Source of the DNA: Escherichia phage JM10
Length of the DNA stretch: 64,000 nt
Strand: one strand, 5' to 3'
Sequence record: PP400777
The notes under the pieces are model-generated. The model saw only the letters and a list, made by a program, of their open reading frames with translations, had not been told where the DNA came from and searched no databases. This document shows, piece by piece, positions 29,987-52,485 of this stretch. Made by a program: the position numbers and the translations under genes. Numbering within the stretch: the stretch's first letter is position 1; each line of letters starts with the position of its first letter.

Positions 29987-31120
<1,134 letters not shown>

Positions 31121-31137
31121 TCAGTTAGTTTTTTTAA

Positions 31138-31577: not shown

Positions 31578-31585
31578 AATAAAGT

Positions 31586-31599
31586 GGGACCGAAGTCCC
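31586..31599 (-). terminator. hairpin GGGAC-UUCG-GUCCC between nrdB and denA
   Basis: 5-bp GC stem with UUCG tetraloop; weak U-tract. Confidence 0.4.
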
Positions 31600-31603
31600 G
31601 TCC

Positions 31604-32106
31604 TTAGAAATATTTTTTGTATGAATTGATTACATTTTGGTCTACATCATTATCAATTTGTGCGACAAGATAAGAACTGATTTCAACTTCTTGTGGGGCT
31701 GCTTGAACCAAATCAGAGTTCAAATACTCACGAATCCATGGAATAGGATGACGAGTTGATACGTCTTTAAGAGGACATGGCAGACCACAACTACGCATAC
31801 GAGACACGGTAAGATAATCCACAAATTCACTTAGGATTTTAACATTTAGACCTGGAAGAGCACCATCTTTAAACAAGTGTTCAGCCCATTCTTTTTCTTG
31901 AGCGTTAACTTCCATGAAAATATCAACTGCTTCTTGTTCACACTCTTGAGCAATTTTGACCCATTCATCACCGTCTTCGCCATCTTGTAAAGCACGAATA
32001 ATATATTGAGTGCCCTTGAGGTGGAGCTGTTCATCACGAGCAATGAACTTCATAATCTTGGCATTACCTTCCATAATTTCCATGTTCTTATGGAAGTTAA
32101 AGGTAC
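31604..32106 (-). CDS. nrdB: ribonucleotide reductase beta subunit NrdB, exon 2
   Basis: Exon 2 encodes (C)TFNFHKNMEIMEGNAK... through the C-terminus; frame joins exon 1 across the intron to give about 392 aa. Confidence 0.85.
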
Positions 32107-33197: not shown

Positions 33198-33873
33198 ACG
33201 CAAAAGATACATAAAAACGAATAGCTTCTAAGGCATTAATAACGTGCAAACAGAGGTAAAGAGATTTCATTAAAGCACGTTTAGCTTCGGCTTCTTGTTT
33301 AATAGCTCGGTTTAAACGAAAGTCGGCATCAGGAGATTCTTTAGCTAGTTCTACAAATTCTTTAGCATTTTCCCAATGACGAGTCTTGACTAGAACATCA
33401 TCGTAATATTTACCTATTGATTCAGCTCGTTTCATGATTGCTTCGTCTAATACAATCTCATCAAATACCTTAGATGGATCTGTATAAAGATTTCGCATAA
33501 TATGAGTATATGAACGAGAGTGAATAGTTTCACTGAAAGTCCATGTAGCAACCCATGTATCTAATGAAGGGTCTGAAAGCAATGACATAAGTACCGCAGA
33601 TGGTGCTCTACCTTGGATAGAATCTAATAATGATTGATACTTAAGGTTGTTGGTAAAGATGTCCTGTTGGAACTGTGGAAGCTTATTGAACTGCGCAGAG
33701 TCCAACATCAAGTTTACCTCTTCTGGACGCCAGAAAAACGACAATTGCTTTTCAATAAGTTCTTCAAAAACTTTATGACGCTGAATATCATACCGTGCGA
33801 GGCCAAGACCAGAACCAAAGAACATCGGTTCATTCAAAACATCGACTTGTTGTGTGTTAAAAACTGTACTCAT
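33198..33873 (-). CDS. nrdB: ribonucleotide reductase beta subunit NrdB, exon 1
   Basis: N-terminal 225 codons near-identical to recalled T4 NrdB (MSTVFNT...ALEAIRFYVSFA). Confidence 0.85.
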
Positions 33874-33926
33874 TATATTTTCTCACTTAGTTTAACTCAT
33901 CCATGAGTAAATTATAATCAAAAGTC

Positions 33927-36182: not shown

Positions 36183-36217
36183 ATATTCCTCAGTATAGGT
36201 TGATAGACATTACTCCA

Positions 36218-36240
36218 AACGGGATAGTATTTATCCCGTT
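36218..36240 (-). other. 9-bp stem hairpin in the nrdA 5' leader region
   Basis: AACGGGATA-gtatt-TATCCCGTT perfect inverted repeat 36 nt upstream of the nrdA ATG. Confidence 0.4.
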
Positions 36241-36269
36241 AATTTATTATACACTTTTAAACTGAAGCG

Positions 36270-36524
36270 TTAATTATCCTCAGCAATAATTTCTTCATAT
36301 TCTTTAGGTGTCAAGACCGTGATATCGAAATAAACCAACGGTTCTTTTTCTATACCGAATCCACCACAGAATTCACGATATTCATAAATTCGTTCATGTG
36401 AATAACAAATGAATCGTTCACCTTTAACTGTGATTTCACTATTTGGTGAAGGGATATCCAGTTCACTTGGATTTTTCATTTCAAAAATTGTGGTGCCATA
36501 TGAATTAATAAAACGTAAAATCAT
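36270..36524 (-). CDS. hypothetical protein (nrdA.1-like)
   Basis: 84-aa ORF between td exon 2 and nrdA; synteny. Confidence 0.45.
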   Translation of the reverse strand: MILRFINSYGTTIFEMKNPSELDIPSPNSEITVKGERFICYSHERIYEYREFCGGFGIEKEPLVYFDITVLTPKEYEEIIAEDN

Positions 36525-36525
36525 T

Positions 36526-36837
36526 TTATACCGCCATTTTAGCTTTGATAGCTGGATGAGATTCGTAATTTTTAAGAACGAAATCAGAATGTGTCATCGT
36601 TCCAGTAACCCAGTCCATTTGGATTTTTGTAGGCCAATTCTCAAAATTACTAGGCCAATTAATTTCAAGAGAACACAACTCTTTAGGTTCACGACGAAGA
36701 ACTTCTTTGCATTGTTCTACATGATTGCTGTAGATATGTGTGTTGCCGCCTGAGAACACTAAATCACCTGGGATAAGGTTACACATCTTCGCTACAATAT
36801 GCGTCAAGGCAGCGTACGAGGCAATGTTGAACGGTAG
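36526..36837 (-). CDS. td: thymidylate synthase, exon 2
   Basis: Encodes LPFNIASYAALTHIVAKMCNLIPGDL... to the C-terminus; joins exon 1 to give 286 aa, as in T4 Td. Confidence 0.9.
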   Translation of the reverse strand, partial: LPFNIASYAALTHIVAKMCNLIPGDLVFSGGNTHIYSNHVEQCKEVLRREPKELCSLEINWPSNFENWPTKIQMDWVTGTMTHSDFVLKNYESHPAIKAKMAV

Positions 36838-37853
36838 CATTATGTTCAGATAAGGTCGTTAATCTTATCCCGGAATTATATCCAGCTGCATGTCACCATG
36901 CAGAGCAGACTATATCTCCAACTTGTTAAAGCAAGTTGTCTATCGTTTCGAGTCACTTGACCCTACTCCCTAAAGGGATAGTCGTTAGGCATTTATGTAG
37001 AACCAATTCCACTTATCAGATTTTACACGGTAAGTAACTAATCCTGATGAAATTTCAAAATGTCTAGCCGCATCGGCTGCACATTCAAAAATAATCCCAT
37101 CGCATGAAATCTTTTTGATGTTAGCTGGCTTTTTGCCTTTCATCTTTTCAGATAGTTTAGTTTTAGTTTTTTCTGAATGTTTGTGATTAAAGAACGGGTT
37201 ATTTTCACCTGAACGTTTTCGGCACTTTCCACAAGTATCGGCCGAAGATGGTATGCGAACACCGCATTTACAAAACTTGTGGTTTTCTGGATTCCATCGG
37301 CCATTTTTACTTCCGTGTTTACCATAAAGAGCTTTCCGACCGTCAGGACCAAGCTTAAGCATCTTAGCTTTAACAGTTTCAGCTCGTTTCTTAGCAATTT
37401 CTTCTTTTAATGGATGATTTGAAAGCACATCGCCAAAAGACGCATCAGCAATATTATATCCATTAATTTTAGAATTTAGCTCTTTAATCCAAAAATTTTC
37501 TCGTTCAATAATCAAATCTTTCTCATATGTAATTTCTTCCAGTACAGAGCATTCAAAAACATTACCATGTTTATTAAAAGACCTTTGAAATTTTATAGAA
37601 GAGTGAACACCGTTTTCAAGGTCTTTAAAATGTCTCTTCCATCTTTTCTCAAAATCTTTAGCACTTCCAACATACACTTTACCGTTTAAAGTGTTTTTAA
37701 TCTGATAAATTCCGCTTTTCATAAACACCTCTTTTTATATAGAAGTATTTATTAAAGGGTAGTCCTACAATTTAGCACGGGATTGTCTACTAGAGAGGTC
37801 CCCCGTTTAGATAGATTACAAGTATAAGTCACCTTATACCTAGGCCTAAATTA
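36838..37853 (-). mobile_element. group I intron in td (1016 nt) carrying I-TevI
   Basis: Intron 5' end TAATTTAGGCCTAGGTATAAGGTGACTTATACTTGTAATC... and 3' end ...GAACATAATG closely match the recalled T4 td intron; exon 1 ends in U, intron ends in G. Confidence 0.9.
36985..37728 (-). CDS. I-TevI: GIY-YIG homing endonuclease I-TevI
   Basis: 247-aa ORF; GIYQIKNTLNGKVYVGSAKDFEKRWKRH GIY-YIG module and C-terminal DNA-binding region; near-identical to recalled T4 I-TevI. Confidence 0.92.
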   Translation of the reverse strand: MFMKSGIYQIKNTLNGKVYVGSAKDFEKRWKRHFKDLENGVHSSIKFQRSFNKHGNVFECSVLEEITYEKDLIIERENFWIKELNSKINGYNIADASFGDVLSNHPLKEEIAKKRAETVKAKMLKLGPDGRKALYGKHGSKNGRWNPENHKFCKCGVRIPSSADTCGKCRKRSGENNPFFNHKHSEKTKTKLSEKMKGKKPANIKKISCDGIIFECAADAARHFEISSGLVTYRVKSDKWNWFYINA

Positions 37854-39237
<1,384 letters not shown>

Positions 39238-39271
39238 TTTATTCTCCTCTTCACTTTTATTTTATAGGGCT

Positions 39272-39301
39272 ACTATAACATAGCCCTATCTTGTTATAAA
39301 C
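39272..39301 (-). promoter_or_regulatory. early promoter-like GTTTAT-N18-TATAGT with palindrome ATAGGGCTA/TAGCCCTAT
   Basis: Minus strand reads GTTTAT aacaagatagggctatgt TATAGT; 9-bp inverted repeat spans the spacer and -10. Confidence 0.45.
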
Positions 39302-39693
39302 TACTTTTTAAAGGTTTTTTGCAAAAGTTTGATGATTTCGTCGACGTTGGTTTCATCTACGATACAATTGATTTTTGTTACACCTAAAGCTATACCTTCG
39401 TTAGTAGATTGAGGCTTTACTAAATCTACCTCAATAAAGTATTTGAACTCGTCAGGATAAATCTCAAAATAAGTTTCAATTTCACCACCGGCAGAACATA
39501 CAGTACCATCTTCCATAGTTACACTTACTACGTTTGACGTATCGCTATCATAATCAGGTTCCATTCCGTTTACAACAAAACTAGGCCCGTGGAGTTCAAT
39601 CAATTTTAACATCTTAGCGTTATTATGTGGTGCTTCTTGAACAAAGTCATCTTTAAATAAAGGGTTAATGATATAAGATTTTCCGATTTCCAT
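39301..39693 (-). CDS. hypothetical protein (frd.2/frd.3 position)
   Basis: 130-aa ORF downstream of an early promoter. Confidence 0.45.
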   Translation of the reverse strand: MEIGKSYIINPLFKDDFVQEAPHNNAKMLKLIELHGPSFVVNGMEPDYDSDTSNVVSVTMEDGTVCSAGGEIETYFEIYPDEFKYFIEVDLVKPQSTNEGIALGVTKINCIVDETNVDEIIKLLQKTFKK

Positions 39694-39722
39694 TTTGATT
39701 TCCTCATGTTGTTGATAGGTTT

Positions 39723-39751
39723 ATACTAACACATCCAGGGAAGAAGTAAAC
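39723..39751 (-). promoter_or_regulatory. early promoter GTTTAC-N17-TAGTAT
   Basis: Minus strand reads GTTTAC ttcttccctggatgtgt TAGTAT about 30 nt upstream of the ATG at 39693. Confidence 0.5.
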
Positions 39752-39782
39752 AACTTTTTCGGCAATTTACAGATACTCAAAA

Positions 39783-39800
39783 GGGAGACCGAAGTCTCCC
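39783..39800 (-). terminator. terminator after gene 32: GGGAGAC-UUCG-GUCUCCC then UUUUGAG
   Basis: Perfect 7-bp GC stem with UUCG tetraloop 7 nt after the gene 32 stop. Confidence 0.7.
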
Positions 39801-39806
39801 AATTTA

Positions 39807-40706
39807 TTATAGACCAGCTAACAGGTCATCGAGGTCGCCATCGTCAGAAGACGAGGAACTCATGAAGTCATCTTCAGTTTTTGCAGAACCAAAGGCTTCC
39901 ATGTCTTTATCAAAATCGTCAAGGTCAGAAGCAACTTTATCTGCAACAGAAGCTGCGGCAGCTGCTGCACCACCAAGAGCGGCAGTACCAAGAACTTGAT
40001 TAAATTTAGTATTCAATTCTTCAAACGATTTGAACTTATCTTTAGAAGTCATTTCAGAAAGGTCAACCATTTGTTCGAACAATTCTTTCTGGAAAGATTC
40101 ATCATCAATGTTTGGAATCGCAGATTGATTCAGGAATTTAGATTCGTCGTAGTTACTGAAACCAGAAACCTGTTTAACTTTCAGCACAAAGTTAGCACCT
40201 TCCCATGGGCAAGTTACATCAACTGGAGTTTCACCCATTTCAGTATCGACTGCAATCATTGCATTGATTTTGTCCCAAATCTTTTTACCGAAACGATATT
40301 TAAATACTTTACCTTCATTATCTGGAGCTTGTGGGTCTTTAACAACCAGAATATTAGCCCAATAAGAAGTTTTACGTTTCAGTTGAGAATATTCAGTTTT
40401 GTTGGTATTGTACAGGTCATTTTTACTAATGTACTGACATACAGGACAAGAGTCATAATCGCCGTGTGTAGATGAACAGGTTTCAATATACCATTTACCA
40501 TTTTTCTTGAACCCGTGGTTAACAAGAATTGTAAACGGAAGTGCGTCATCTGTTTTTGCCGGCAGGAAACGAATTACCGCTTGACCATTACCGGATGCAT
40601 CGAGTTTCAGCTTCCATTCACCTTTATCTTCTGAAGAGAAACCTTTGTTACCATTCAGTTTAGCCATCTGAGCTGCGAGGTCTGCGGTACTTTTACGTTT
40701 AAACAT
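39807..40706 (-). CDS. 32: single-stranded DNA-binding protein gp32
   Basis: 299 aa; zinc-binding [10 protein letters not shown] region; acidic C-terminal tail; near-identical to recalled T4 gp32. Confidence 0.95.
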
Positions 40707-40822
40707 TTTATTTGCCTTTATTTAGATTATTTAATTTATTTACAGTTGGTTGCTACGACACTTATACCTCGTAGCTGGTATGATTTATTTATAAAGTAAT
40801 TTTAACACACAAGAAATAAAGC
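40707..40822 (-). promoter_or_regulatory. gene 32 leader: late promoter TATAAATA (40786-40793), hairpin (40752-40775) and AU-rich translational operator
   Basis: Minus strand has TATAAATA, then GCTACGA-ggtataagtg-TCGTAGC, then repeated UAAAUAAAUUAAAUAAUCUAAAUAAA before the ATG, like the T4 gp32 autoregulatory operator. Confidence 0.6.
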
Positions 40823-41476
40823 TTAATACTTACATGATTTGATTGTTTCTATGAACAATTTCTTAGCAGCATTTCCATCGATTTGAAGTATTTTTCGATA
40901 TGCCTTTAATTTAGTAGAATAATTTTGCCAGACTAAGTTATCGGTGAGTTCGTCGTGCTTATCTATAATATTCAAAAATGAGTCCAATAATAAGAAAGTC
41001 TCAAATGAAATTATATTGCTTTGTAGCAATTTGAATATGTAGCTCGACTGAACGTTATTATTATAATCAAATATCTCTTGAAGCGCACTAACTTCAACTT
41101 TCTTACTGAAATAGTAGATGTTACGTACGTCTTCAGCAAACGTCTCTTTAGCTTGTTTGAGACGTCCAATATATTCCCTATAGAAAACTAATGCATCAGC
41201 GTCTGATATCTCACCAATCCATGCGTCTTGGTTAGCAACTAAGTTGCTTATGAATATCAAGGTGAGTTCCTTCAATTTATATTTCTCTGCTAGTTTTTCA
41301 AAGAAATATTTATCTCGACGTTTTTGATACGCATTATCCGAAACACGCATGCACCAGTTATATTTGATTACGTCATACCGACCACCAAAGTGGTTTTTGC
41401 ACATCAAGTATAGTTTATATACTGATTTACCGTTAATATACCGTTCTCCGCCAGGAGGCATGCGTATTTTAATCAT
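40823..41476 (-). CDS. 59: helicase loader gp59
   Basis: 217 aa; near-identical to recalled T4 gp59. Confidence 0.93.
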   Translation of the reverse strand: MIKIRMPPGGERYINGKSVYKLYLMCKNHFGGRYDVIKYNWCMRVSDNAYQKRRDKYFFEKLAEKYKLKELTLIFISNLVANQDAWIGEISDADALVFYREYIGRLKQAKETFAEDVRNIYYFSKKVEVSALQEIFDYNNNVQSSYIFKLLQSNIISFETFLLLDSFLNIIDKHDELTDNLVWQNYSTKLKAYRKILQIDGNAAKKLFIETIKSCKY

Positions 41477-41811
41477 AATAAGAAATCTAACGTATTAGTT
41501 TTTTCACCACGAGCAACTGATGGGCGAAGCATGTTTTCGTCAATTGCTTCGCTTGTAATTTTTTCAACAATTCCTGTAGGAATAAATTTAGCAAATTGTG
41601 TTTCTGGAATAGAATTTTCTTCCAAGAAAGCAGTTGTTGCTTCTAAATAAGACATACCAAATTGTTCAACCATGGATTCGATAATGAATCCGTTTTCTTG
41701 TCGGTCAAGCAATTTAGCGATATCATCTTTATCATGTTTTACTGCTAATTCTTGTTCAGATAAACCGGCCTCATCAACCGGTTTAATATCACTTAGTGAA
41801 AACTGTGTCAT
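41473..41811 (-). CDS. 33: late transcription co-activator gp33
   Basis: 112 aa; near-identical to recalled T4 gp33; ATGA overlap with gene 59. Confidence 0.92.
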   Translation of the reverse strand: MTQFSLSDIKPVDEAGLSEQELAVKHDKDDIAKLLDRQENGFIIESMVEQFGMSYLEATTAFLEENSIPETQFAKFIPTGIVEKITSEAIDENMLRPSVARGEKTNTLDFLL

Positions 41812-42058
41812 AAAGCTCGACTACCTCTTCGTTTTCAGCTTCAAATTGATCACGAGCGTCTTTATGATAAAGAACTAACAAACGATTAAACATTTTTCCA
41901 TCAACGCCAAGCTCTTCTTTAGCACGAGTACGAATGTCTTTAATCAGTTCATTATAACCAGAAATTTTAAGTTTGTTATCAGAAGCTTCCTTGACTAGTT
42001 TAGCCAGTTCTTCACCATGCACATCTTGATTAAATTCAACTGCTTCTTTCTTAGCCAT
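41789..42058 (-). CDS. dsbA: double-stranded DNA-binding protein DsbA
   Basis: Start at MAKKE (GAGG SD) gives 89 aa matching T4 DsbA; the ORF-track N-terminal extension is rejected. Confidence 0.88.
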   Translation of the reverse strand: MAKKEAVEFNQDVHGEELAKLVKEASDNKLKISGYNELIKDIRTRAKEELGVDGKMFNRLLVLYHKDARDQFEAENEEVVELYDTVFTK

Positions 42059-42065
42059 GTTTACC

Positions 42066-42983
42066 TCAGAATTCATTAATTACACTTGTTAATTTAGAAA
42101 GACCAGATTTTACAAAGTATGAATAAATCTTGCCTTTAGGTTGTTGTTTATATGAGTTATAATACTCTATAATGGTTGAAGCAATATTATCAGGTATATA
42201 ATCAAAATCAATGAGAACCAAATTTTCTTGATACCGTTTATATTCTTCTGCACTTAATAATACTTCAGCTTGAGAACGGTCATTAGCAATTGCTTCAATA
42301 ATTGATGTTTTCATACTTGGAGTTCGTTCACCATCAACTCTGGTAAACCAGAAGTCACCACGAACTCGAACAGATGCAACGCCGTCTTTACGGTCACCTT
42401 TAAGAATTTTAGTCATGCAATCAATTTCAGCAGAACAGTTCTTAATTTTAACCCATTTTTTCTGTGGTGGCGACCACTGTTTAACGTTAGGATATTTGTG
42501 TAATTGTGTAAAGTCACCATCTGATGCAACAATACATACCTTATGACCAGCTAATGACAAATATTTAGTTAATACACCGATATGGTCATCCGCTTCATAC
42601 TTGTCAATATCCATTACAACGTATGGCATGTATTTCTTAATCTCATCAACAACTTGATGGAGTGCAGTAAAATATCCTTCCCAATCCCACTTTGAAGCTT
42701 CACGATCGGTTTTACGATTTTTCTTGTAATAGTAAGCAAAGTCACGACGCCAATAACCTGAAGTAGCATTATCCATACACAATACAAATTTTGTATAGCC
42801 TTGCTTACGGAACATCACTACGTTTTTACGAATTGAATTCAAGATTACATGGCGAACCATTGGTATCGTAATTTTATCGCCGTCTTCAAAGTTGTTTAAT
42901 GCGGCTGCCAATGCAATGTTACTAAAGTCGGCAAGTGCAATACCTTCTTTATAATCTTCATCCAACATCATTTCTAAATCCAT
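42066..42983 (-). CDS. rnh: RNase H (5'-3' exonuclease, FEN family)
   Basis: 305 aa; near-identical to recalled T4 RNase H. Confidence 0.93.
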   Translation of the reverse strand: MDLEMMLDEDYKEGIALADFSNIALAAALNNFEDGDKITIPMVRHVILNSIRKNVVMFRKQGYTKFVLCMDNATSGYWRRDFAYYYKKNRKTDREASKWDWEGYFTALHQVVDEIKKYMPYVVMDIDKYEADDHIGVLTKYLSLAGHKVCIVASDGDFTQLHKYPNVKQWSPPQKKWVKIKNCSAEIDCMTKILKGDRKDGVASVRVRGDFWFTRVDGERTPSMKTSIIEAIANDRSQAEVLLSAEEYKRYQENLVLIDFDYIPDNIASTIIEYYNSYKQQPKGKIYSYFVKSGLSKLTSVINEF

Positions 42984-43015
42984 ATGAACCTCTTGTTCAG
43001 TTAGTCAACTTTTCT

Positions 43016-43044
43016 ATAGTAACACACTCATTTGAAAGCGTAAA
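43016..43044 (-). promoter_or_regulatory. early promoter GTTTAC-N17-TACTAT for rnh
   Basis: Minus strand reads GTTTAC gctttcaaatgagtgtg TACTAT about 30 nt upstream of the rnh ATG. Confidence 0.55.
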
Positions 43045-43047
43045 CTG

Positions 43048-43055
43048 GTATAAAT
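43048..43055 (+). promoter_or_regulatory. late promoter TATAAATA for gene 34
   Basis: Exact TATAAATA 31 nt upstream of the gene 34 ATG. Confidence 0.65.
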
Positions 43056-43086
43056 AAGTATTATTGAAACAATAAAGGAAAAACGA

Positions 43087-46000
43087 ATGGCCGACATCAA
43101 ACGTAAGTTCAGAGCCGAAGACGGTCTGGACGCCGGTGGCGACAAGATTGTTAACGTAGCATTAGCCGACCGTACAGTAGGTACTGATGGCGTAAACGTT
43201 GACTTCCTGGTACAAGAAAACACCGTTCAAGTATATGATTCTACGCGTGGATATAACAAAGGATTTGTTGTTCTTTATGACAACCGTTTATATCAAGCAA
43301 TAAATGATATCGTGTCTCCTTCCGGGGCATTTAACCTTTTACAATGGCGTGCAGTTCGTACTGATGCACAATGGATAACTGTCGCTTCTGGGACTTATCA
43401 ACTTTCTTCAGGTGAATCGATTTCGGTTAACACTGGTGCCGGCAATGATATGGTTTTCACGTTGCCGAATACGCCGGTTGATGGTGATACTGTTGTTTTG
43501 GCTGATATTGGTGGAAGAACCGGGACAGTTAAAGTACAGATTAACGCGTCTGTGCAGAGTATTTTAAACTTTAGAGGTGAACAAGTTCGTACAGTTTTAA
43601 TGACGCGCCCACGTTCACAACTATTGTTTGTGTTTAGTAATCGTTTGTGGCAGATGTATATTATCGATTATGGTAAAGAATCAATCACTGTTACACCTGC
43701 GACACCATATCAAGCACAAGCAAATGATTTTATCGTTCGTCGTTTTACTAGTGCAGCACCAATCAACATTACACTTCCACGTAATGCTAACAATGGTGAT
43801 ATAATCCACCTAGTTGATTTAGATAAATTAAACCCACTGTATCATACAATTGTTAAAACATTTGATGATACAACGTCTATCGGTGAAGTCGGGACTCATA
43901 TTGCCGAAGGCAGAAATGACTCTGACGCGTTTTTTGTTTTTGATGCTGCAAATAGTTTATGGCGTATACGGGAAGGCGACCAGAAATCGCGTCTTCGTAT
44001 TATCCGTGCGGATTCAAATATTCGTCCAAATGAAGAAGTTCTTATTTTTGGCACAAATAACGCTACAACCGGAACTATTAATCTTACGCTGCCTTCTGGA
44101 ATTTTGAGTGGTGACACTGTTAAAATTTCAATGAACTACATGCGTAAAGGCCAAACAGTAAAAATTAAAGCTGCCGAAGGTGATACAATTGCTTCTTCTG
44201 TTGCATTGCTTCAGTTCCCTAAACGTTCTGAATATCCACCTGATGCTCAATGGGTCTCTGTTACTGAACTAGAATTCAATGGCACTACTTCATATGTTCC
44301 TGTATTAGAATTAGCGTATATCGAAGACACCGTTGCTGGTACACGTTATTGGGTTGTTCAACAAAACGTCCCGACTGTAGAACGTGTTGATGCTGGAACT
44401 GATGCTACACGAGCTCGTTTAGGTGTTATTGCTCTTGCTACTCAAGCGCAAGCAAATGTTGATTTAGAGAATACTCCAGCTAAAGAAGTGGCTATTACTC
44501 CTGAAACGTTGGCAAATCGTACAGCAACTGAAACTCGACGCGGTATCGCTAAAATTGCTACAACAGCACAAGTTAATCAGGATTCTACTGCAACATTTGT
44601 GGATGATACTATCGTTACGCCTAAGAAATTAAATGAGCGTACAGCGACTGAAACTCGTCGCGGTTTAGCAGAAATAGCTACTCAAGCAGAGACTGATGCT
44701 GGGACTGATGATACAACTATTATCACTCCTAAGAAATTACAGGCACGTCAGGGTTCAGAAACTCTGTCTGGTATAGTTAAATATGTATCGACTGCTTCAG
44801 CTACTCCTGCTGCTACTCGTGGAACTGCAGGCACTAACGTTTATAATAAAGACACAACTACGTTAACTATTTCGCCTAAAGCTCTCGATCAGTATAAAGC
44901 GACTTCTACTCAACAGGGTGCTACTATTCTGGCTCTTGAAAGTGAAGTAATTGCTGGTCAATCCCAAGCAGGTTATTCTCACGCTGTAGTAACTCCTGAA
45001 ACACTACATAAGAAAACTTCTACTGATGGACGTATTGGTTTAATTGAAATTGCTACGCAAGAAGAAACTAATGCTGGGACTGATTATACACGTGCAGTAA
45101 CGCCTAAGACGTTAAATGATAGGAAAGCTACGGAAGGATTATCCGGCATAGCCGAACTTGCTACGCAAGTTGAATTTGATACTGGAACTGACGATACTCG
45201 TATCTCAACTCCACTGAAAATTAAAACTCATTTTGATTCTTCTGACCGTACCAGTGTTAATTCTGATTCCGGACTTATTGAAGAAGGAACCTTGTGGAAC
45301 CATTATACTCTTGATATTTCTAAAGCAAATGAAACACAACGTGGCACACTTCGCGTAGCGACCCAGGCAGAATCTAATACAGGAACTTTAGATGATGTTC
45401 TTATTACTCCTAAAAAGCTTTTAGGGACTAAGTCCACTGAAACGTCTGAAGGCGTAATTAAGGTTGCTACTCAGGCTGAAACTGTAACAGGAACTTCTGC
45501 TAATACTGCTGTATCTCCAAAAAATTTAAAATGGATTGCGCAGAGTGAACCTACCTGGGCAGCTACTACTGCGATAAGAGGTTTTGTTAAAACTTCATTC
45601 GGTTCTATTACATTTGTTGGCGACGATACTCAAGGTAGTACACAGGACCTGAATCTTTACGAGAAAAATAGTTATGCTATTTCTCCATATGAATTAAATC
45701 GCGTATTAGCAAATTATTTGCCATTGAAAGCTAAAGCTGTAGATAGTAATTTATTAGATGGACTAGATTCATCTCAGTTCATTCGTAGGGATATTGCACA
45801 GACGGTTAATGGTTCACTAACCTTAACCCAACAAACGAATCTGAGTGCCCCTCTTGTATCATCTAGTACTGCTACGTTTGGTGGTTCAGTTTCGGCAAAT
45901 AGTACATTAACTATTTCTAACTCTGGAACAGCAACTCGTCTGATTTTTGAAAAAGGACCTCAAACTGGAACTAACCCAGCGCAGACGATGACTATCAGAG

Positions 46001-46962
46001 TTTGGGGAAATCAGTTTGGCGGCGGATCAGATACATCACGTTCTACTGTATTTGAAGTTGGAGATGAAACATCTAATCACTTTTATTCTCAACGTAATAA
46101 AGCTGGGAATATAACGTTTAGCATTAACGGTACTGTGATGCCGATAAATGTTAACGCTTCAGGTTCTTTGAACGCTAACGGCGTTGCAACATTTGGTAGT
46201 TCAGTTACAGCCAATGGTGAATTCATTAGCAAGTCTGCAAATGCATTTAGAGTAATTAGTGGTGATTACGGATTCTTTATTCGTAATGATGCTGCTAATA
46301 CCTATTTTATGCTCACTGCATCAGGTGATCAGACCGGTGGTTTTAATGGATTACGCCCATTATTAATTAATAATCAATCCGGTCAGATTACAATTGGTGA
46401 AGGCTTAATCGTTGCCAAAGGTGCTACTATAAATTCAGGTGGTTTGACTGTTAACTCGAGAATTCGTTCTCATGGTACTAAAACATCTGATTTATATACC
46501 CGTGCACCAACATCTGATACTGTAGGATTCTGGTCAATAGATATTAACGATTCAGCCACTTATAACCAATTCCCTGGTTATTTTAAAATGGTTGAAAAAA
46601 CTAATGAAGTGACTGGACTTCCATACTTAGAACGTGGCGAAGAAGTTAAATCTCCTGGTACATTGACTCAGTTTGGTAATACACTTGATTCACTTTACCA
46701 AGATTGGATTACTTATCCAACAACTCCAGAAGCACGTACCACTCGCTGGACACGTACATGGCAGAAAACTAAAAATTCTTGGTCAAGTTTTGTTCAGGTA
46801 TTTGATGGAGGTAACCCTCCTCAACCATCTGATATTGGTGCTTTACCATCTGATAATGCTACAATGGGGAATCTTACTATTCGTGATTTCTTAAGGATTG
46901 GTAATGTCCGCATTATTCCAGACCCTGTGAATAAATCTGTTAAATTCGAGTGGATTGAATAA
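43087..46962 (+). CDS. 34: long tail fibre proximal subunit gp34
   Basis: 1291 aa (T4 gp34 is 1289); internal fibre repeats (x-ATETRRG-x-A-x-IAT-x-A-x-x-GTDDT-x-I-TPKKL). Confidence 0.93.
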   Translation: MADIKRKFRAEDGLDAGGDKIVNVALADRTVGTDGVNVDFLVQENTVQVYDSTRGYNKGFVVLYDNRLYQAINDIVSPSGAFNLLQWRAVRTDAQWITVASGTYQLSSGESISVNTGAGNDMVFTLPNTPVDGDTVVLADIGGRTGTVKVQINASVQSILNFRGEQVRTVLMTRPRSQLLFVFSNRLWQMYIIDYGKESITVTPATPYQAQANDFIVRRFTSAAPINITLPRNANNGDIIHLVDLDKLNPLYHTIVKTFDDTTSIGEVGTHIAEGRNDSDAFFVFDAANSLWRIREGDQKSRLRIIRADSNIRPNEEVLIFGTNNATTGTINLTLPSGILSGDTVKISMNYMRKGQTVKIKAAEGDTIASSVALLQFPKRSEYPPDAQWVSVTELEFNGTTSYVPVLELAYIEDTVAGTRYWVVQQNVPTVERVDAGTDATRARLGVIALATQAQANVDLENTPAKEVAITPETLANRTATETRRGIAKIATTAQVNQDSTATFVDDTIVTPKKLNERTATETRRGLAEIATQAETDAGTDDTTIITPKKLQARQGSETLSGIVKYVSTASATPAATRGTAGTNVYNKDTTTLTISPKALDQYKATSTQQGATILALESEVIAGQSQAGYSHAVVTPETLHKKTSTDGRIGLIEIATQEETNAGTDYTRAVTPKTLNDRKATEGLSGIAELATQVEFDTGTDDTRISTPLKIKTHFDSSDRTSVNSDSGLIEEGTLWNHYTLDISKANETQRGTLRVATQAESNTGTLDDVLITPKKLLGTKSTETSEGVIKVATQAETVTGTSANTAVSPKNLKWIAQSEPTWAATTAIRGFVKTSFGSITFVGDDTQGSTQDLNLYEKNSYAISPYELNRVLANYLPLKAKAVDSNLLDGLDSSQFIRRDIAQTVNGSLTLTQQTNLSAPLVSSSTATFGGSVSANSTLTISNSGTATRLIFEKGPQTGTNPAQTMTIRVWGNQFGGGSDTSRSTVFEVGDETSNHFYSQRNKAGNITFSINGTVMPINVNASGSLNANGVATFGSSVTANGEFISKSANAFRVISGDYGFFIRNDAANTYFMLTASGDQTGGFNGLRPLLINNQSGQITIGEGLIVAKGATINSGGLTVNSRIRSHGTKTSDLYTRAPTSDTVGFWSIDINDSATYNQFPGYFKMVEKTNEVTGLPYLERGEEVKSPGTLTQFGNTLDSLYQDWITYPTTPEARTTRWTRTWQKTKNSWSSFVQVFDGGNPPQPSDIGALPSDNATMGNLTIRDFLRIGNVRIIPDPVNKSVKFEWIE

Positions 46963-46970
46963 GAGGTATT

Positions 46971-48098
46971 ATGGAAAAATTTATGGCTAAGTTTGGACAA
47001 GGATACGTCCAAACGCCATTTTTATCGGAAAGCAATTCAGTACGATTTAAATTAAGCATAGCGGGATCTTGCCCGCTATCAACATCTCCTGCTTATATTA
47101 AGTTCCAGGATAATCCACTTGGGTCCCAGGTTTTTTCTGTTGGATTAAACGTTCGTGTAATAAATCCTACAACAGGTGCAGTAGTTGAATCTAAGTCATA
47201 TAATTTCTCTACTGAAAACGACGCCACGTCAAGTGCATTTGTTACTTACATGGACACATATGCTTCAAATTTTATATTTGCTCTTGTTACTAACGCTAAA
47301 ACAAACTTTCCTCCTGAAGTTCTCGCATGGTTTACCAAAGCTGGGAGTTCTGCTATTCCATTAGCTCAACAAGTTTTAAATATAGTGGACATTTCTTATT
47401 CTGCATTTTATATTTCTGGTAAGAACGCTATAGCACTAGAACATATTAAGTATAGTAATAAGAAAACTTCAACCGACTATAGTACACCACTTGATGTTGT
47501 GTACGACACTATCGATGATATTGGTGCTACCGGCTTCCCTAGTCGTACGTACGAATCGACAGACACATTTTTATCTGCTGTTGGAGGTACTAATAACGAA
47601 ATTAAAAGGATGCCTACAACATCCCTTATTACACCTCTCGCTGGGTATAAATTGAAGCCTGGAGATTTCCTTTATATGAAATTCCAACTAATGGCAGATG
47701 CTGATTTGTTAGCACAAGGGACGACACGACTTTCTATTCGTTTCTTTAAATCTCCTTCTACTTCACCTATTTCATTTAAGGATATAAACTTTGATGGGGG
47801 TGCAGGTGAATGGAAGATATATGAAGACTACATAGAAATTCCTGCTGGTGCTGACGGGTTCACGATTTATTGTTATCGTACAGCTCCAGTCGGGCAAGGC
47901 GGATTAAGAAACGTTATATTCACTGAAGTGTCATGTAATGGAAGCGTTTCAAAACCTGCTGAGTTTGGTATAAATGGTATTCGTGTAAATTATGTTTCAG
48001 AATCTTTAAGTGCCCCAGACATAATGACATTACCTACTCAATCTTCAACTGATACTGGTAAGGTATTTGGACAAGAATTTAAAGAAGCATCAGAATAA
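46971..48098 (+). CDS. 35: long tail fibre hinge connector gp35
   Basis: 375 aa; synteny and size. Confidence 0.88.
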   Translation: MEKFMAKFGQGYVQTPFLSESNSVRFKLSIAGSCPLSTSPAYIKFQDNPLGSQVFSVGLNVRVINPTTGAVVESKSYNFSTENDATSSAFVTYMDTYASNFIFALVTNAKTNFPPEVLAWFTKAGSSAIPLAQQVLNIVDISYSAFYISGKNAIALEHIKYSNKKTSTDYSTPLDVVYDTIDDIGATGFPSRTYESTDTFLSAVGGTNNEIKRMPTTSLITPLAGYKLKPGDFLYMKFQLMADADLLAQGTTRLSIRFFKSPSTSPISFKDINFDGGAGEWKIYEDYIEIPAGADGFTIYCYRTAPVGQGGLRNVIFTEVSCNGSVSKPAEFGINGIRVNYVSESLSAPDIMTLPTQSSTDTGKVFGQEFKEASE

Positions 48099-48103
48099 AT
48101 TTA

Positions 48104-48121
48104 GGGAGACTTCGGTCTCCC
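48104..48121 (+). terminator. hairpin GGGAGAC-UUCG-GUCUCCC after gene 35
   Basis: Perfect 7-bp stem with tetraloop followed by AUUUUUG; identical 18-mer to the element at 23005. Confidence 0.6.
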
Positions 48122-48128
48122 ATTTTTG

Positions 48129-48136
48129 TATAAATA
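48129..48136 (+). promoter_or_regulatory. late promoter TATAAATA for genes 36-37
   Basis: Exact TATAAATA 25 nt upstream of the gene 36 ATG. Confidence 0.65.
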
Positions 48137-48160
48137 TGGTATACATATAAGGAGACAACT

Positions 48161-48823
48161 ATGGCCGATTTAAAAGCTGGTAGTACAACTGGCGGTGCTG
48201 TTATATGGCATCAAGGTAATTTCCCTTTAATGCCAGCAGGTGATGACGTCCTGTATAAAACGTTTAAACTCTATTCAGAATATAATAAACCACAAGCTGC
48301 TGATAACGATTTCGTTTCTAAAGCTAATGGTGGTACTTACGCTGCAACTGTTCGATTTAACGGAGGCGTACATGTTCCTACTGTAGGTAGTAGTCAACAG
48401 TGTGGTGTTTATCCAGGTAACGGTGATGCAGCTACTTTTGATATGGCAAATATTGACATCGTTTCGTGGAATGGTATTGGTTTTAAGTCATCACAAGGTT
48501 CAGCAGACCGAACTGTTGTTATTAACGCTCGTACCGGTGATATTAATACGAAAGGCGTTGTATCTGCTTCAGGACAAGTAAGAAGCGATATGACTGCTCC
48601 GGTTGCAGCAAATGATCTCACAAGAAAAGATTATGTTGATGGACGAATAAATATTGTTACGGATAACGCAAATTCCCGTGTATTGCGTAAAGGCGATACA
48701 ATGACTGGTACTTTAACAGCACCAAACTTTTTCTCACAGAATCCGGCGTCTGAGGCTAATCATGTTCCTCGTTTCGACCAGATTGTAATTAAAGATTCTG
48801 TTCAAGATTTCGGCTATTATTAA
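48161..48823 (+). CDS. 36: long tail fibre distal connector gp36
   Basis: 220 aa; synteny and size. Confidence 0.88.
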
Positions 48824-48831
48824 GAGGACTT

Positions 48832-51800
48832 ATGGCTACTTTAAAACAAATACAATTTAAAAGAAGCAAAACCGCAGGTGCACGTCCTGCTGCTTCAGTA
48901 TTAGCCGAAGGTGAATTGGCTATAAACTTAAAAGATAGAACAATTTTTACTAAAGATGATACAGGAAATATCATTGATCTAGGTATTGCTAAAGGCGGTC
49001 AAATTGATGGAAATGTAACTATTGATGGAACTTTACGCGTCAATGGACCAATAAACAACTTTGGAAATTTTTCTACAAGTGGTACTATTACGGCAAGTAA
49101 TATTGTTTCTGCTACAGTATTCAGATCAACATCCGGTTCATTTTATACAAGAGCAATAAATGATACTGCAAAGGCCCATCTTTGGTTTGAAAATACAAAT
49201 GGCTCAGAACGTGGCGTTTTATATTCAAACCCGCAGTCTGAAAATGAAGGCGTAATTACAATGCGTGTTCGTCAAGGAACCGCTGCGGAAGCTCAAAATT
49301 CAGAATTTCATTTCATTTCTACTGATGGCGGTATCTTCCAGGCACGCAAATTAACTGCTTTAACTTCTATTAGTACACCAACTATTAGTGTTAATTTAAT
49401 TAATCATGATTCTAAATCATTTGGACAATATGATTCACAATCTTTGGTTAACTATGTTTATCCTGGAACTGGTGAAACGAATGGTGTAAACTATCTTCGT
49501 AAAGTTTGCGCTACGTCCGGTGGTACAATTTATCATGAAATTGTTACTGCACAAAAAGGCCTGTCTGATGAAGTTTCTTGGTGGACTGGTAATACACCAT
49601 TATTTAAACTATATGGTATTCGTAGCGACGGCAGACTGATTATCCGCAATAGCCTGGCCATCGGTACTGTGACGGGAGGGTTTCCGTCAAGCGATTATGG
49701 CAATGTTGAGGCACTAGGAAATATATTTCTTGCTTTAGGTGATAACGGGACAGGTTTACGCTATCGAAAAACCGGGGTATTTGATTTCGTTGGTTCTGGA
49801 CTATCTGTCGCATCTATTACACCTGACAGTTTCCGTAGTACTCGTAAAGGTATATTTGGTCGTTCCGAGGACCAAGGCGCAACTTGGATAATGCCTGGGA
49901 CCAACGCCGCGTTTTTAACGGTTCAAACACAGGCTGATGAAAACACTGCTGGAGACGGTCAAACCCATATTGGATATAATTCTGGCGGGAAAATGTCCCA
50001 CTATTTCCGTGGTAAAGGCCAAACTAATATTAATACTCAAGAAGGCATGGAAGTTAACCCGGGTATTTTGAAATTGGTAACTGGCTCTAATAACGTACAG
50101 TTTTATGCTAACGGAACAGTATCTTCAATACAAAGAATTAAATTTGATAATGGATTAGTTCTTACTGGTGCTAGACCCGATGGTATTCAACTTGATGCTC
50201 CTACAACAACAGATGGCACTAAAACTATATTGTGGGCCGGCGGTACTCGTGAGGGTCAGAATAAAAGTTATGTATCTATTAAAGCATGGGGTAATTCATT
50301 TAACGCATCTGGCGATCGTAATCGTGAAACGGTTTTTGAAGTAGCTGATGGACAAGGATATTATTTCTACGCTCAACGTACTAATCCTGCGTCAGGTCAA
50401 ACAGTAGGTCCGGTTAACTTTAAATTTAACGGAACTGTCGAAACAGGCCATATCATAGGCCTTGGTAATATAAGTGCCTCCGGTACAGGTTCTTTTGGTG
50501 GCAATGTTACTATGTCTAACGGTTTGTTTGTCCAAGGTGGTTCTTCTATTACTGGACAAGTTAAAATCGGCGGAACAGCTGATGCATTAAGAATTTGGAA
50601 TGCTGAATACGGGGCTATTTTCCGTCGTTCTGAAGATAAACTTTATATTATTCCAACTCCACAAAATGCTGGTGAATCAGGTGGTATTTCTAATTTACGT
50701 CCATTTACCATGACTCTTAGTACTGGTAAAATGGAATTTAAACATGATGTTGGACTTGGTGATAACGGCTCCGGTGGAAGCATATTATTTGTAGATAACA
50801 CTAACAAAGCCACTACTAATAACGGTCGTTTATACGTTAATATGACAAGTGATGCTATAGTGCTTAATGCTCCTACACAAGAAACATCTAACTTTATCCA
50901 AGGACGCAAAGCTAACGTCACTAAATGGTATGTTGGTATTGGCGACAGTGGTGATTCTGTTCGTATGCATAGCTATGCATATTCCCACGGCTTGGTATTA
51001 AGTGCTAACTCCGTTGATATTACTAAACCGTTAAAAGTTGGTAATGCTCAATTCGGTACTGATGGTAATATCACCGGTGGTTCTGGTAACTTTGCCAACT
51101 TGAACACCACAATAAATAACCTTAAGACGGATATCGTCTCAAGTTATCCAATTGGCGCTCCGATTCCTTGGCCAACGGATACTCCTCCTGACGGTTACGC
51201 TATTATGGAAGGTCAGACTTTTGATAAGTCTGCATACCCAAAATTGGCTATGGCTTACCCATCTGGCGCTCTGCCTGATATGCGTGGTCAAACTATCAAG
51301 GGTAAACCATCTGGGCGTGCTGTATTAAGTACAGAAGCCGATGGTGTTAAGTCACATAGCCATAGTGCAAGTGCATCAAGCACAGATTTGGGTACTAAAA
51401 ACACATCAAGTTTTGATTATGGTACTAAAACCTCTTCAAGCTTTGATTATGGTACGAAGACTAGCAATACAACAGGTAACCATAACCATACAGTAAGCGG
51501 TACTACTGGTGCAGCAGGTAACCACCAGCACTCACAAACCGGTCCAAGGGGTCCTAATAATCAACCAACAGGAATATTTCCTAATGGATCTACTCTAATT
51601 AGTGGAACCCAGGTTGTTGGTTTTGGCCTAAGCAACGGTGTCGTGCCTGGTTCAAGCCAATATATTGCAAAGTCATCGACAGAAGGTAACCATACACACT
51701 CTTGGTCTGGTACTACTAGCTCTACGGGTAACCATGCTCATACTGTAGGTATTGGTGCTCACACTCACACGGTAGGTATTGGTGCTCATTCTCATACTGT

Positions 51801-51903
51801 TGCAATTGGTTCCCATGGACATACAATAACTGTAAATGCCACAGGAAATACAGAAAACACAGTTAAAAACGTTGCTTTTAACTATATCGTTCGTTTAGCA
51901 TAA
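48832..51903 (+). CDS. 37: long tail fibre distal subunit gp37 (receptor-binding tip)
   Basis: 1023 aa; C-terminal His-x-His repeats ([39 protein letters not shown]), the T4 gp37 iron-binding needle signature; ends ...NYIVRLA. Confidence 0.93.
51391..51462 (+). repeat. tandem 30-bp repeat (about 2.4 copies) inside the gene 37 tip region
   Basis: ggtactaaaaacacatcaagttttgattat / ggtactaaaacctcttcaagctttgattat / ggtacgaagact, encoding [24 protein letters not shown]. Confidence 0.8.
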
Positions 51904-51907
51904 GGAG

Positions 51908-51925
51908 AAGGGACTTCTGTCCCTT
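51908..51925 (+). terminator. hairpin AAGGGAC-UUCU-GUCCCUU then UUUUAU after gene 37
   Basis: 7-bp stem plus U-run immediately after the gene 37 stop. Confidence 0.6.
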
Positions 51926-51933
51926 TTTATAAT

Positions 51934-52485
51934 ATGAAACTCTATCACTATTATTTTGACACTAAAGAATTTTACAAAGAAGAAAATTATAAACCATTAA
52001 AAGGCGTAGGATTTCCGGCTCATTCGACACCAAAAAAACCTTTAGACCCTAAAGAAGGCTATGCTGTTGTATTTGATGAACGCGAACAAGAATGGGTATA
52101 TGTTGAAGACCATCGTGGAAAAACAGTATGGACTTATGATAAGCAAAAAATTGTTATTGACACTCCAGGTGCTCTTCAAAATGTTACTACAGAAGAACCC
52201 GGTGAATTTGACATTTGGACCGACGACGGGTGGAAGGAAGATGAAGCATATAAACGCGTAGTTCAACGTGATAAGAAAATTCATGAACTCTATAAATTAT
52301 TCAGTGTTTTAAGTTCTCTTATCGACGCAGAGGTTGCTAATAGAGAAGAAAAACGAAAATTTAAAGAGCTCAAAAAATTCTTTGCCCTTTTAGAAAAACA
52401 TGAACATCTTGGCGGCGAATTCCCTAAATTCCCTGACCTTGAAAATAAATCTATTATCAAAGCGATTATAAATATCTTTAAGTAA
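51934..52485 (+). CDS. 38: gp38, T4-type long tail fibre assembly chaperone
   Basis: 183 aa, same length as T4 gp38; N-terminus MKLYHYYFDTKEFYKEENYKP matches recalled T4 gp38. Confidence 0.88.
   Translation: MKLYHYYFDTKEFYKEENYKPLKGVGFPAHSTPKKPLDPKEGYAVVFDEREQEWVYVEDHRGKTVWTYDKQKIVIDTPGALQNVTTEEPGEFDIWTDDGWKEDEAYKRVVQRDKKIHELYKLFSVLSSLIDAEVANREEKRKFKELKKFFALLEKHEHLGGEFPKFPDLENKSIIKAIINIFK
52467..52474 (+). promoter_or_regulatory. late promoter TATAAATA for holin t (inside the gene 38 3' end)
   Basis: Exact TATAAATA 20 nt upstream of the t ATG. Confidence 0.55.

Follow-up and report, generated by a model that had tools for sequence, protein, structure and literature searches.

Paired tandem repeats and their probable role in setting needle length in the T4/lambda-type fibre tip of Escherichia phage JM10

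Described fibre tips of the T4 and lambda type

The crystallised tip of T4 gp37 (PDB 2XGF) has the order of parts also found in JM10: collar, ascending H-x-H arm, head insert, descending H-x-H arm and conserved tail. The T4 stem consists of residues 882-931 and 960-1009, with the tip subdomain (932-959) between them; residues 1010-1026 belong to domain D10, and the crystal contains seven Fe (PMC6957217). Receptor-contact and host-range residues of T4 map to 929-959 (tip boundaries from PMC6957217). Contacts are published between G921 and F970 and between G964 and H929 (PMC6957217).

The nearest relative is gp37 of Mosigvirus vB_EcoM_G2469 (GenBank MK327934), which shares 99% amino-acid identity with JM10 over the last 209 residues and has the same head and the same repeat count (n = 2, as defined below). 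It was described as carrying 7-9 His-X-His repeats and, by HHpred, a T4-needle-like tip (Korf et al. 2019, PMC6563267). The C-terminus of lambda Stf (orf-314) is 63% identical over the tip; its n is also 2, and its H-x-H spacings (42, 14, head, 14, 9, 9, 9) are those of JM10. A Tfa-type assembly gene follows it, and related prophage fibres come with Tfa chaperones. Lambda Stf differs in its head (48-residue spacing against 56 in JM10), in its N-terminal shaft and in belonging to a siphovirus, not a T4-like myovirus.

Felixounavirus fibres show the architecture at greater distance (36-44% identity to JM10, over part of the tip only). The long and short tail fibre tips of Bas63 have, like JM10, a collar, a six-stranded H-x-H needle and a small head, and the authors of that study note a possible scaling of motif number with needle length (PMC12609058). 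SP116, with a Felix-O1-like fibre, shares FDYGTK units and 9-residue steps with JM10. The N-terminal attachment of these fibres is different, and SP116 has an extra C-terminal extension after the array.

The JM10 tip is an ordinary, already described T4/lambda-type tip, published for its 99% identical relative. A rule that pairs the repeat units of the two arms was not found stated in the literature searched (a set without Bartual 2010 and Hyman and van Raaij 2018). Full-text searches found no mention of the peptide string FDYGTK, and the term "His boxes" did not occur among the papers returned.

Gene 37 of JM10 and its two repeat arrays

The window analysed here is a stretch of 64,000 nucleotides from Escherichia phage JM10 (PP400777). 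Its tail fibre genes lie in the order gp34-gp35-gp36-gp37-gp38-holin, and phage records label the gene matching gene 37 "long tail fibre distal subunit". The gene 37 product matches the Pfam families gp37_trimer, Gp34_trimer and Collar; a phage tail collar domain, whose core is the equivalent of part of T4 D10, directly precedes the needle. The features are:

48832-51903, plus strand: gene 37 (long tail fibre distal subunit), 1023 aa, from the ORF list and translation
51154-51297, plus strand: Collar domain core, residues 775-822 (Pfam PF07484, E = 2.5e-12), aligned to the 2XGF collar region
51355-51363, plus strand: H-x-H 1 (SHSHS, residues 842-844), where the ascending stem arm starts next to the collar; aligns to T4 H883/H885
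51391-51480, plus strand: ascending 30-bp array, two full units (51391-51450) and a degenerate terminal unit (51451-51480), from Tandem Repeats Finder
51481-51531, plus strand: distal ascending stem with H-x-H 2 (NHNHT, 51481-51489) and H-x-H 3 (NHQHS, 51523-51531), aligned to T4 H915/H917 and H929/H931
51532-51672, plus strand: head (tip) insert, residues 901-947, 47 aa; aligns to the T4 tip subdomain 932-959
51691-51699, plus strand: H-x-H 4 (NHTHS, residues 954-956), the first descending-arm motif; aligns to T4 H966/H968
51733-51822, plus strand: descending 27-bp array with H-x-H 5-8, three 9-residue steps, including HSHTVAIGS then HGH
51823-51900, plus strand: conserved C-terminal tail, leading back to the collar, 72-100% nucleotide identity to relatives; aligns to T4 1001-1026
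51934-52485, plus strand: gene 38, T4-type tail fibre assembly chaperone, 183 aa, 68% identity to T4 gp38 (E = 7e-92), Pfam Caudo_TAP

By its identity to the T4 gp38 chaperone and its Caudo_TAP match, the gene 38 product is not a T2/S16-type adhesin. A terminator scan reported no hairpin 3' of gene 37, where the G2469 record annotates one.

Homology to the T4 tip is clear. A phmmer search aligns query residues 1-267 to chain residues 14-242 of 2XGF (E = 1.3e-81), with large gaps confined to one 10-aa unit, one 9-aa unit and the head. The earlier note had identified the gene as gene 37 and its end as a T4-type needle. This alignment, the Collar match, the gene order from gp34 to the holin and the gp38 chaperone bear out gene 37 with a T4-type collar-needle-head tip. 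The motifs GTKxxSSFDY and VGIGAHxHT occur in both phages. JM10 has one more 10-aa ascending unit and one more 9-aa descending unit than T4, and its stem arms measure 60 and 59 residues, where each T4 arm has 50. The head insert of JM10 is longer than that of T4 (47 against 28 aa) and unrelated to it (27% nucleotide identity), so the OmpC/LPS specificity of T4 is not transferable to JM10.

The product contains eight H-x-H motifs, and these account for every one of the 16 histidines in its last 209 residues. When these residues were shuffled 20,000 times, the mean was 1.15 motifs and the maximum 6; the first 814 residues have 10 histidines and no H-x-H. Seven of the motifs align to the seven iron-ligand motifs of T4 and the eighth lies in the added 9-aa unit, which would give the JM10 tip eight predicted metal sites. 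The cluster had been recognised earlier with seven motifs. Every peptide then listed is in frame within 48832-51903, and SHSHS was missed. The 30-bp repeat, which had been placed ahead of all the motifs, actually lies between the first and the second.

The repeat itself is real. Tandem Repeats Finder gives a 30-bp period at 51391-51455 with 2.2 copies (close to the 2.4 first proposed), 88% matches and a score of 102. The two full units, GGTACTAAAAACACATCAAGTTTTGATTAT and GGTACTAAAACCTCTTCAAGCTTTGATTAT, agree at 26 of 30 positions (87%), and the longest exact direct repeat in the array is 14 nt. At the protein level the array forms the histidine-free spacer between H-x-H 1 and H-x-H 2; H-x-H 3 follows H-x-H 2 at 14 residues. 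The spacer is nearly free of histidine across relatives as well (28 histidines in 7177 residues). Over 347 ascending units the family consensus is GTKTTSSFDY, with conservation of G at 99%, K at 93%, F at 92% and D at 96%. A consensus of this strength rules out low-complexity noise as the origin of the repeat.

A second array, unmentioned in the earlier note, sits 342 bp downstream. It has a 27-bp period (51733-51800, 2.5 copies, score 101), units identical at 23 of 27 and 21 of 27 positions and a longest exact repeat of 17 nt, and it encodes 9-residue HxHTVGIGA units. The two arrays are the sole tandem repeats scoring at least 60 in the window. The descending array would be the partner of the ascending one.

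Co-variation of the arrays and the proposed needle

The relation between the arrays was followed through 233 distinct C-terminal domains, drawn from phages and prophages as well as viral contigs and metagenomes. Matches from the large protein database all fell below about 470 aa; most were prophage fibres and none was a full-length gp37, and named phages were added separately. Sequences were parsed by the first H-x-H gap and by the number of 9-residue steps in the terminal run, and 28 of 418 sequences went unparsed, having no collar or C-terminal anchor motifs or too few H-x-H.

Among the 233 relatives the two arrays co-vary one to one. H-x-H 1 and H-x-H 2 are spaced by 22+10n residues, while the terminal 9-residue H-x-H run has n+1 steps, with n from 0 to 4: spacings of 22, 32, 42, 52 and 62 residues go with 1, 2, 3, 4 and 5 terminal steps. 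The rule is strict in 226 of 233 sequences (4, 56, 144, 20 and 2 for n = 0, 1, 2, 3 and 4); six are off by at most one residue or by one motif gained or lost, and one is a true mismatch. T4 (seven H-x-H), GRNsp7, PhiZZ23 and SI7 have n = 1. Lambda Stf, G2469, teqhad, AdolfPortmann, ECCR664, PNJ-9, LF82-41 and CJY920 have n = 2, as does JM10 gene 37 with its eight motifs. The arms are matched in distant flavobacterial relatives too, where both carry H-x-H motifs at intervals of 17 residues.

Of the 191 sequences analysed first, 187 were concordant, where independent arrays would lead one to expect 45%; Spearman's coefficient was 0.98, and the highest of 100,000 permutations reached 114. These figures overstate independence because the sequences share phylogeny: n was counted to change independently only about five times while the head stayed constant. 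Two stem lengths occur in each of five head-cassette clusters (at least 70% identity), and both arrays shift together in all five. Copy number thus varies among relatives, as the earlier note had supposed, from 0 to 4 full units, and it does so only together with the 27-bp array.

Because of this 22+10n / n+1 co-variation, each GTKxxSSFDY unit probably pairs with one HxHTVGIGA unit in an antiparallel needle. The chain would leave the collar, enter a six-stranded, metal-stapled needle (three chains, two arms each), pass through a small variable head and return to the collar. In such a fold the 30-bp repeat would supply the histidine-free 10-residue units of the outgoing (ascending) arm, directly after the collar, and the 27-bp repeat the 9-residue HxHTVGIGA units of the returning (descending) arm. 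As the arms are antiparallel, each ascending unit would lie alongside one descending H-x-H unit, and one of each would make up a "rung" of the needle that adds one predicted metal site per trimer. If units pair into rungs, copy number determines, in quantised steps and subject to the pairing, how long the stem is, and mismatched arms may be selected against. Receptor specificity would reside in the head cassette between the two arrays. We put the probability at roughly 0.8 that the region is a T4/lambda-type fibre tip in which copy number sets stem length in paired, quantised steps and specificity lies in the head.

The geometry can be approached through T4. The published contacts G921-F970 and G964-H929, taken with both stem boundaries, imply an antiparallel register of i+j ~1891. 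This register would set T4 residues 895-904 opposite 987-996, the home of the H989/H991 motif; unit-to-unit pairing extrapolates it from two contacts and the domain boundaries. With 10 residues facing 9 there is one residue too many in every rung, which a bulge would have to absorb. An AlphaFold2 monomer of the last 267 residues, built on a 44-sequence alignment, reached a pLDDT of 53 and a pTM of 0.21, and its only long strands were at query residues 119-136 and 200-217; a poor score is expected when an interdigitated trimer is modelled as a monomer.

Head cassettes, recombination and host range

By alignment the T4 counterpart of the 30-bp repeat is residues 895-914, a part of the stem beside the collar and outside the tip subdomain. 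The earlier note had assigned it to the receptor-binding end and proposed it as a host-range hotspot. The alignment places it in the collar-proximal stem and not in the tip at 932-959, and the hotspot proposal is not supported, given that position, the unchanged span in the high-coverage relatives listed and the divergence of the units (66% against 65%, below).

It is very improbable that the array works as a slipped-strand or unequal-crossover hotspot yielding host-range variants. The idea draws on a genuine tandem repeat with units 87% identical and an exact direct repeat of 14 nt, on the range of 0 to 4 full units among relatives, and on single contigs: one (L001) has repeat units identical at the DNA level, and another (L002, from IMG/VR) shows an apparent single-array deletion between 14-nt direct repeats, although in the 27-bp array. 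Gene 37 duplications in T4 have also been reported to extend host range to Yersinia, as Tetart 1996 is cited in PMC7002106. Yet the repeat occupies the part of the needle farthest from the head, and the T4 host-range and receptor-contact residues lie at 929-959. The duplications in question reportedly involve one small adhesin-region domain and leave out the GTKxxSSFDY units beside the collar.

Turnover of the units tells the same way against a hotspot. Mean unit identity is 66% within a gene and 65% between genes (77 two-unit genes), which rejects concerted evolution; units no more alike within than between genes give no sign of ongoing slippage turnover. Changes confined to a single array are almost absent (1 of 233). 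When a query spanning the array was compared with phage records, 175 of 220 matched 80% or more of its length, mostly at 80-95% nucleotide identity, and the listed matches of that coverage all keep the two-unit span. T4-type records align to one unit only, no listed record suggests a three-unit array, and no copy-number polymorphism between closely related genomes appears among the records listed. Stem length may affect host range.

Variation is concentrated elsewhere. The head insert between the two arrays is the sole hypervariable segment of the tip: at the nucleotide level it shares 27-46% with every relative compared apart from G2469 (97%), whereas its flanks keep 54-100%. It is presumed to be the receptor-contacting cassette. 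The T-even distal tail fibre locus, for which recombination between conserved motifs is reported (Tetart et al. 1998, as cited in PMC3157838), has the same layout as JM10, with conserved repeated motifs flanking a variable adhesin segment.

Mosaic identity is visible around the cassette. Against G2469, nucleotide identity is 94-100% across the tip except in the descending array (81%); the ascending array is 100% identical. The 17 differences form a mainly synonymous patch confined to the 27-bp array, where JM10 turns ECCR664-like, and from about 51787 onwards JM10 is 100% identical to ECCR664. Against ECCR664 itself, identity starts at 97% at the collar end, falls through 74% (ascending array) to 33% (head), and climbs again to 91% (descending array) and 100% (tail). 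The descending array, judged by these identities, contains a recombination or conversion junction.

Such mosaics invite the reading that the arrays are mainly conserved DNA "landing pads" (the His-box idea) for head-cassette swaps, with copy number incidental. The drop to 33% in the head beside 100% in the tail, the junction seen against G2469 and ECCR664, and the same head type on stems of differing length in five clusters all fit it, and recombination between conserved motifs at this locus is an established idea (Tetart 1998, as cited in PMC3157838). As the principal role of the arrays we hold it somewhat doubtful, since it leaves unexplained the exact 10- and 9-residue protein periods and the locked array counts across 233 sequences, and the ascending array, 100% identical to G2469, showed no junction in the comparisons made. 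It is compatible with the paired-unit needle and not an alternative to it.

Stem length could also be adaptive in itself, the number of rungs tuning the reach of the head through O-antigen or capsule and so affecting host range indirectly. The five discrete lengths and the occurrence of one head on different lengths would suit such tuning, and cryo-EM shows that needle length and di-histidine number differ between the two fibres of Bas63 (PMC12609058). We regard it as unlikely; T4-like phages showed only n = 1 and n = 2 among the records examined. The stricter proposal, of obligately paired 10- and 9-residue modules gained or lost only as pairs (n = 0-4), with an adaptive rung number as a second, length-based axis of host range, is likewise improbable.

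The paired-unit needle, which we prefer, bears on fibre-tip engineering for phage therapy. The arrays should be treated as a matched pair with their counts kept in step, and head cassettes are best swapped between the arrays with the repeats left unaltered. The 22+10n / n+1 rule offers a prediction, from sequence only, of needle length and metal-site number (eight in JM10), and unmatched arms may flag mis-assemblies or defective genes.

Gene 37 and its tip

The arrays lie in gene 37, a label correctly assigned in the earlier note: neighbouring ORFs have T4-like sizes and order, their Pfam domains agree, and window positions 30000-50000 share about 96% identity with Mosigvirus vB_EcoM_G2469 and with phage JM17.

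Features of gene 37 and its neighbourhood
ORF at the gp34 position: 1291 aa, size and order as in the T4 long-tail-fibre module
ORF at the gp35 position: 375 aa, size and order as in the T4 long-tail-fibre module
gp36 ORF: 220 aa, Pfam Phage_T4_gp36
48832-51903, + strand: gene 37 ORF, 1023 codons, Pfam gp37_trimer, Gp34_trimer and Collar
51355-51363: SHSHS motif
51391-51455: 30-bp period (ascending array), 2.2 copies, 88% matches, score 102 (Tandem Repeats Finder)
51733-51800: 27-bp period (descending array), 2.5 copies, score 101 (Tandem Repeats Finder)
Chaperone-type ORF downstream of gene 37: 183 aa, Pfam Caudo_TAP
Holin T ORF: 219 aa

The 183-aa protein is a homologue of the T4 gp38 chaperone (68% identity, E = 7e-92). 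The arrangement is therefore that of T4, with the adhesin carried by gp37; the T2/S16 type, in which gp38 is the adhesin, is ruled out. The sequence GGGAGAC-TTCG-GTCTCCC, followed by a T-run (48104-48121), makes a terminator-like hairpin between the gp35 and gp36 positions; 3' of it an 11-bp tandem (GTATAAATATG x1.9, 48128-48148) contains TATAAATA, which resembles the T4 late-promoter consensus. A second hairpin (AAGGGAC-TTCT-GTCCCTT then TTTA, 51908-51929) separates gene 37 from gene 38; a terminator scan made no call there, and the G2469 record has a terminator annotated at the equivalent position.

The last 267 residues match the crystallized T4 gp37 tip (PDB 2XGF) over the whole chain (E = 1.3e-81), supporting the T4-type metal-stapled needle that the note had recognized. 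For a near-identical phage this identification is already in print: the tip protein is 99% identical to that of vB_EcoM_G2469, and the paper on that phage credits its gp37 with seven to nine His-X-His repeats and, by HHpred, a tip resembling the T4 needle (PMC6563267). Only three large differences separate the window from T4: a 10-residue unit and a 9-residue unit, both absent from T4, and a head unrelated to the T4 head.

Both arrays and all H-x-H motifs fall within the final 550 bp of the ORF, and these arrays are the only tandem repeats scoring at least 60 in the 64-kb window. The full 30-bp units agree at 26/30 nt (longest exact repeat 14 nt) and are followed by a degenerate unit; the 27-bp units encode peptide repeats including HSHTVAIGS. 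Eight H-x-H motifs account for every one of the 16 histidines in the last 209 residues, and the first 814 residues have no H-x-H; in 20,000 shuffles of the 209 residues, motifs averaged 1.15 and never exceeded 6. The repeat and the motif cluster described earlier are thus confirmed, but eight motifs are present where seven had been listed, and the repeat does not precede them all: with SHSHS upstream, it falls between the first and second motifs. The peptide text of the 27-bp array had been given correctly, its tandem nature left unmentioned.

Matched lengths of the two arrays

C-terminal domains were gathered from 120 database proteins, 160 viral-contig loci, 45 genome loci, 80 metagenome loci and 16 named phages, and 233 distinct complete domains were scored for H1-to-H2 spacing and for the uninterrupted C-terminal run of 9-residue H-x-H steps. 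With n as the number of full 10-residue GTKxxSSFDY ascending units, spacing equals 22+10n and descending steps equal n+1.

Spacing and steps in the scored domains (n; H1-to-H2 spacing; 9-residue steps; domains; named examples)
0; 22; 1; 4
1; 32; 2; 56; T4, GRNsp7, PhiZZ23, SI7
2; 42; 3; 144; lambda Stf, G2469, teqhad, AdolfPortmann, ECCR664, PNJ-9, LF82-41, CJY920, window
3; 52; 4; 20
4; 62; 5; 2

Six of the 233 are near-fits, deviating by no more than one residue or by the gain or loss of a single motif within a unit (L092, L094, L100, L212, L213, L229). The one true mismatch, L002 (IMG/VR UViG_3300030021_000020, locus 2080-2280), combines spacing 42 with two 9-residue steps; its sequence corresponds to a teqhad-like array from which one 27-nt unit has dropped out between 14-nt direct repeats, whether by slippage in nature or by collapse during assembly. 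Among the first 191 sequences, 187 had concordant arrays, against 45% expected under independence and a maximum of 114 in 100,000 permutations, figures inflated by relatedness. A more conservative count compares head-cassette clusters (at least 70% identity): five clusters each occur with two stem lengths, and both arrays differ together in 5/5. This 1:1 pairing rule was not found stated in the searchable literature; a 2025 paper goes no further than remarking that longer needles may have more motifs (PMC12609058).

Minimal forms from Rosenbergiella (L189), Desulfoluna (L193/L194), Klebsiella (L199) and Grimontia (L212/L213) have zero full units, a spacing of 22-23 residues and one 9-residue step, so the series reaches n = 0 and hosts beyond Enterobacterales. 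L229 (metagenome contig RCUE01000008.1) carries an additional H-x-H (AHDHG) inside an ascending unit and retains 52-residue spacing and four descending steps; evidently the ascending arm can acquire a motif at unchanged length. In the teqhad RefSeq record (L081, NC_054933.1, locus 1064-1126), a 'repeat_region' within gene 37 coincides with the 27-bp array, flagging the descending repeat without a functional note. Distant flavobacterial relatives (L216, Psychroserpens; L217, a Flavobacteriales MAG; L220, Winogradskyella) differ in having H-x-H every 17 residues in both arms, the ascending count being the descending count plus one (e.g. four 17-residue spacings, head, three); they achieve the same matched-arm geometry with another type of repeat.

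Position of the repeat and variation of the head

The 30-bp repeat aligns with T4 residues 895-914. In T4, the D10 collar comprises 811-881 and 1010-1026, the stem 882-931 and 960-1009, and the tip subdomain 932-959 (Islam et al. 2019, PMC6957217), which places the repeat on the outgoing stem arm, next to the collar. By this alignment it is the part of the needle most distant from the receptor-contacting head, not in the receptor-binding end as the earlier note had it. The T4 residues shown to affect LPS/OmpC binding or host range map to 929-959; an older genetic specificity region, 907-996 as quoted in PMC9659904, overlaps only the degenerate last unit.

The proposal that the repeat is a slippage hotspot for host range is not borne out either. 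At least 80% of an array-spanning query is covered by 175 of 220 phage records, mostly at 80-95% nucleotide identity; all matches listed at that coverage keep the query span, hence two units, T4-type records match a single unit, and no listed record points to three. In a set of 77 distinct two-unit genes, identity is 66% between the units of one gene and 65% between orthologous units of different genes, so that homogenisation through recurrent slippage or conversion is not apparent; units in the window (87%) are above average, and those of contig L001 are identical. Length change in one array alone is almost absent (1/233, L002). For T4, duplications in gene 37 have been described that broaden host range (Tetart 1996, as cited in PMC7002106).

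What varies is the head insert between the arrays, with 27-46% nucleotide identity to all compared relatives except G2469, while its flanks show 54-100% across relatives. Compared with G2469 (L083), the descending array (51733-51822) is 81% identical, with 17 differences over about 85 nt, most of them synonymous, against 94-100% DNA identity in the rest of the tip; from about 51787 to the stop codon the window is 100% identical to ECCR664 (L085). The pattern is evidence of recombination: a crossover or gene-conversion junction seems to lie within the descending array, which fits an old proposal that cassettes are exchanged through conserved motifs at this locus (Tetart 1998, as cited in PMC3157838). 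The head insert (51532-51672) also resembles that of the E. coli prophage fibres P0007-P0010 (SQTGPRTNSGSQPTGMFPAGSTQVSGTNQVG...). Their stems have n = 1, and at a 70% cut-off their heads did not cluster with the window's insert; a similar head type thus occurs on a virulent T4-like phage and on prophages, with different stem lengths.

Proposed pairing of the arms

Stem boundaries in T4 (882+1009, 931+960) concur in an antiparallel register of i+j about 1891 and, together with the published inter-arm contacts G921-F970 and G964-H929 (PMC6957217), define it. Residues 895-904 would then lie opposite 987-996, which holds the H989/H991 motif. The equivalent sum in the window is 1848, which would place ascending units opposite descending motifs.

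Predicted pairing in the window (register 1848)
Ascending unit 854-863 opposite motif 986-988
Ascending unit 864-873 opposite motif 977-979
Ascending unit 874-883 opposite motif 968-970

The AlphaFold2 monomer model is of too low quality to rely on (pLDDT 53); it has just two long strands, at query 119-136 and 200-217, and these also sum to the 1848 register, which is weak support at most. The ascending-unit consensus, G-T-K-T-T-S-S-F-D-Y, is strongly conserved, and the ascending spacer is nearly histidine-free (28 histidines in 7177 residues), so metal ligands here would come from the returning arm only, the outgoing arm contributing matching strand length. By T4 boundaries the arms measure 50 + 50 residues in T4 and 60 + 59 in the window; one surplus residue per rung would require a bulge.

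The role of the 30-bp unit is most likely structural. It would supply the outgoing, histidine-free side of a rung and be paired there with the 27-bp H-x-H unit on the returning side; the window would have one such rung more than T4, with eight predicted metal sites. Rather than revealing a new system, these findings refine a known one.
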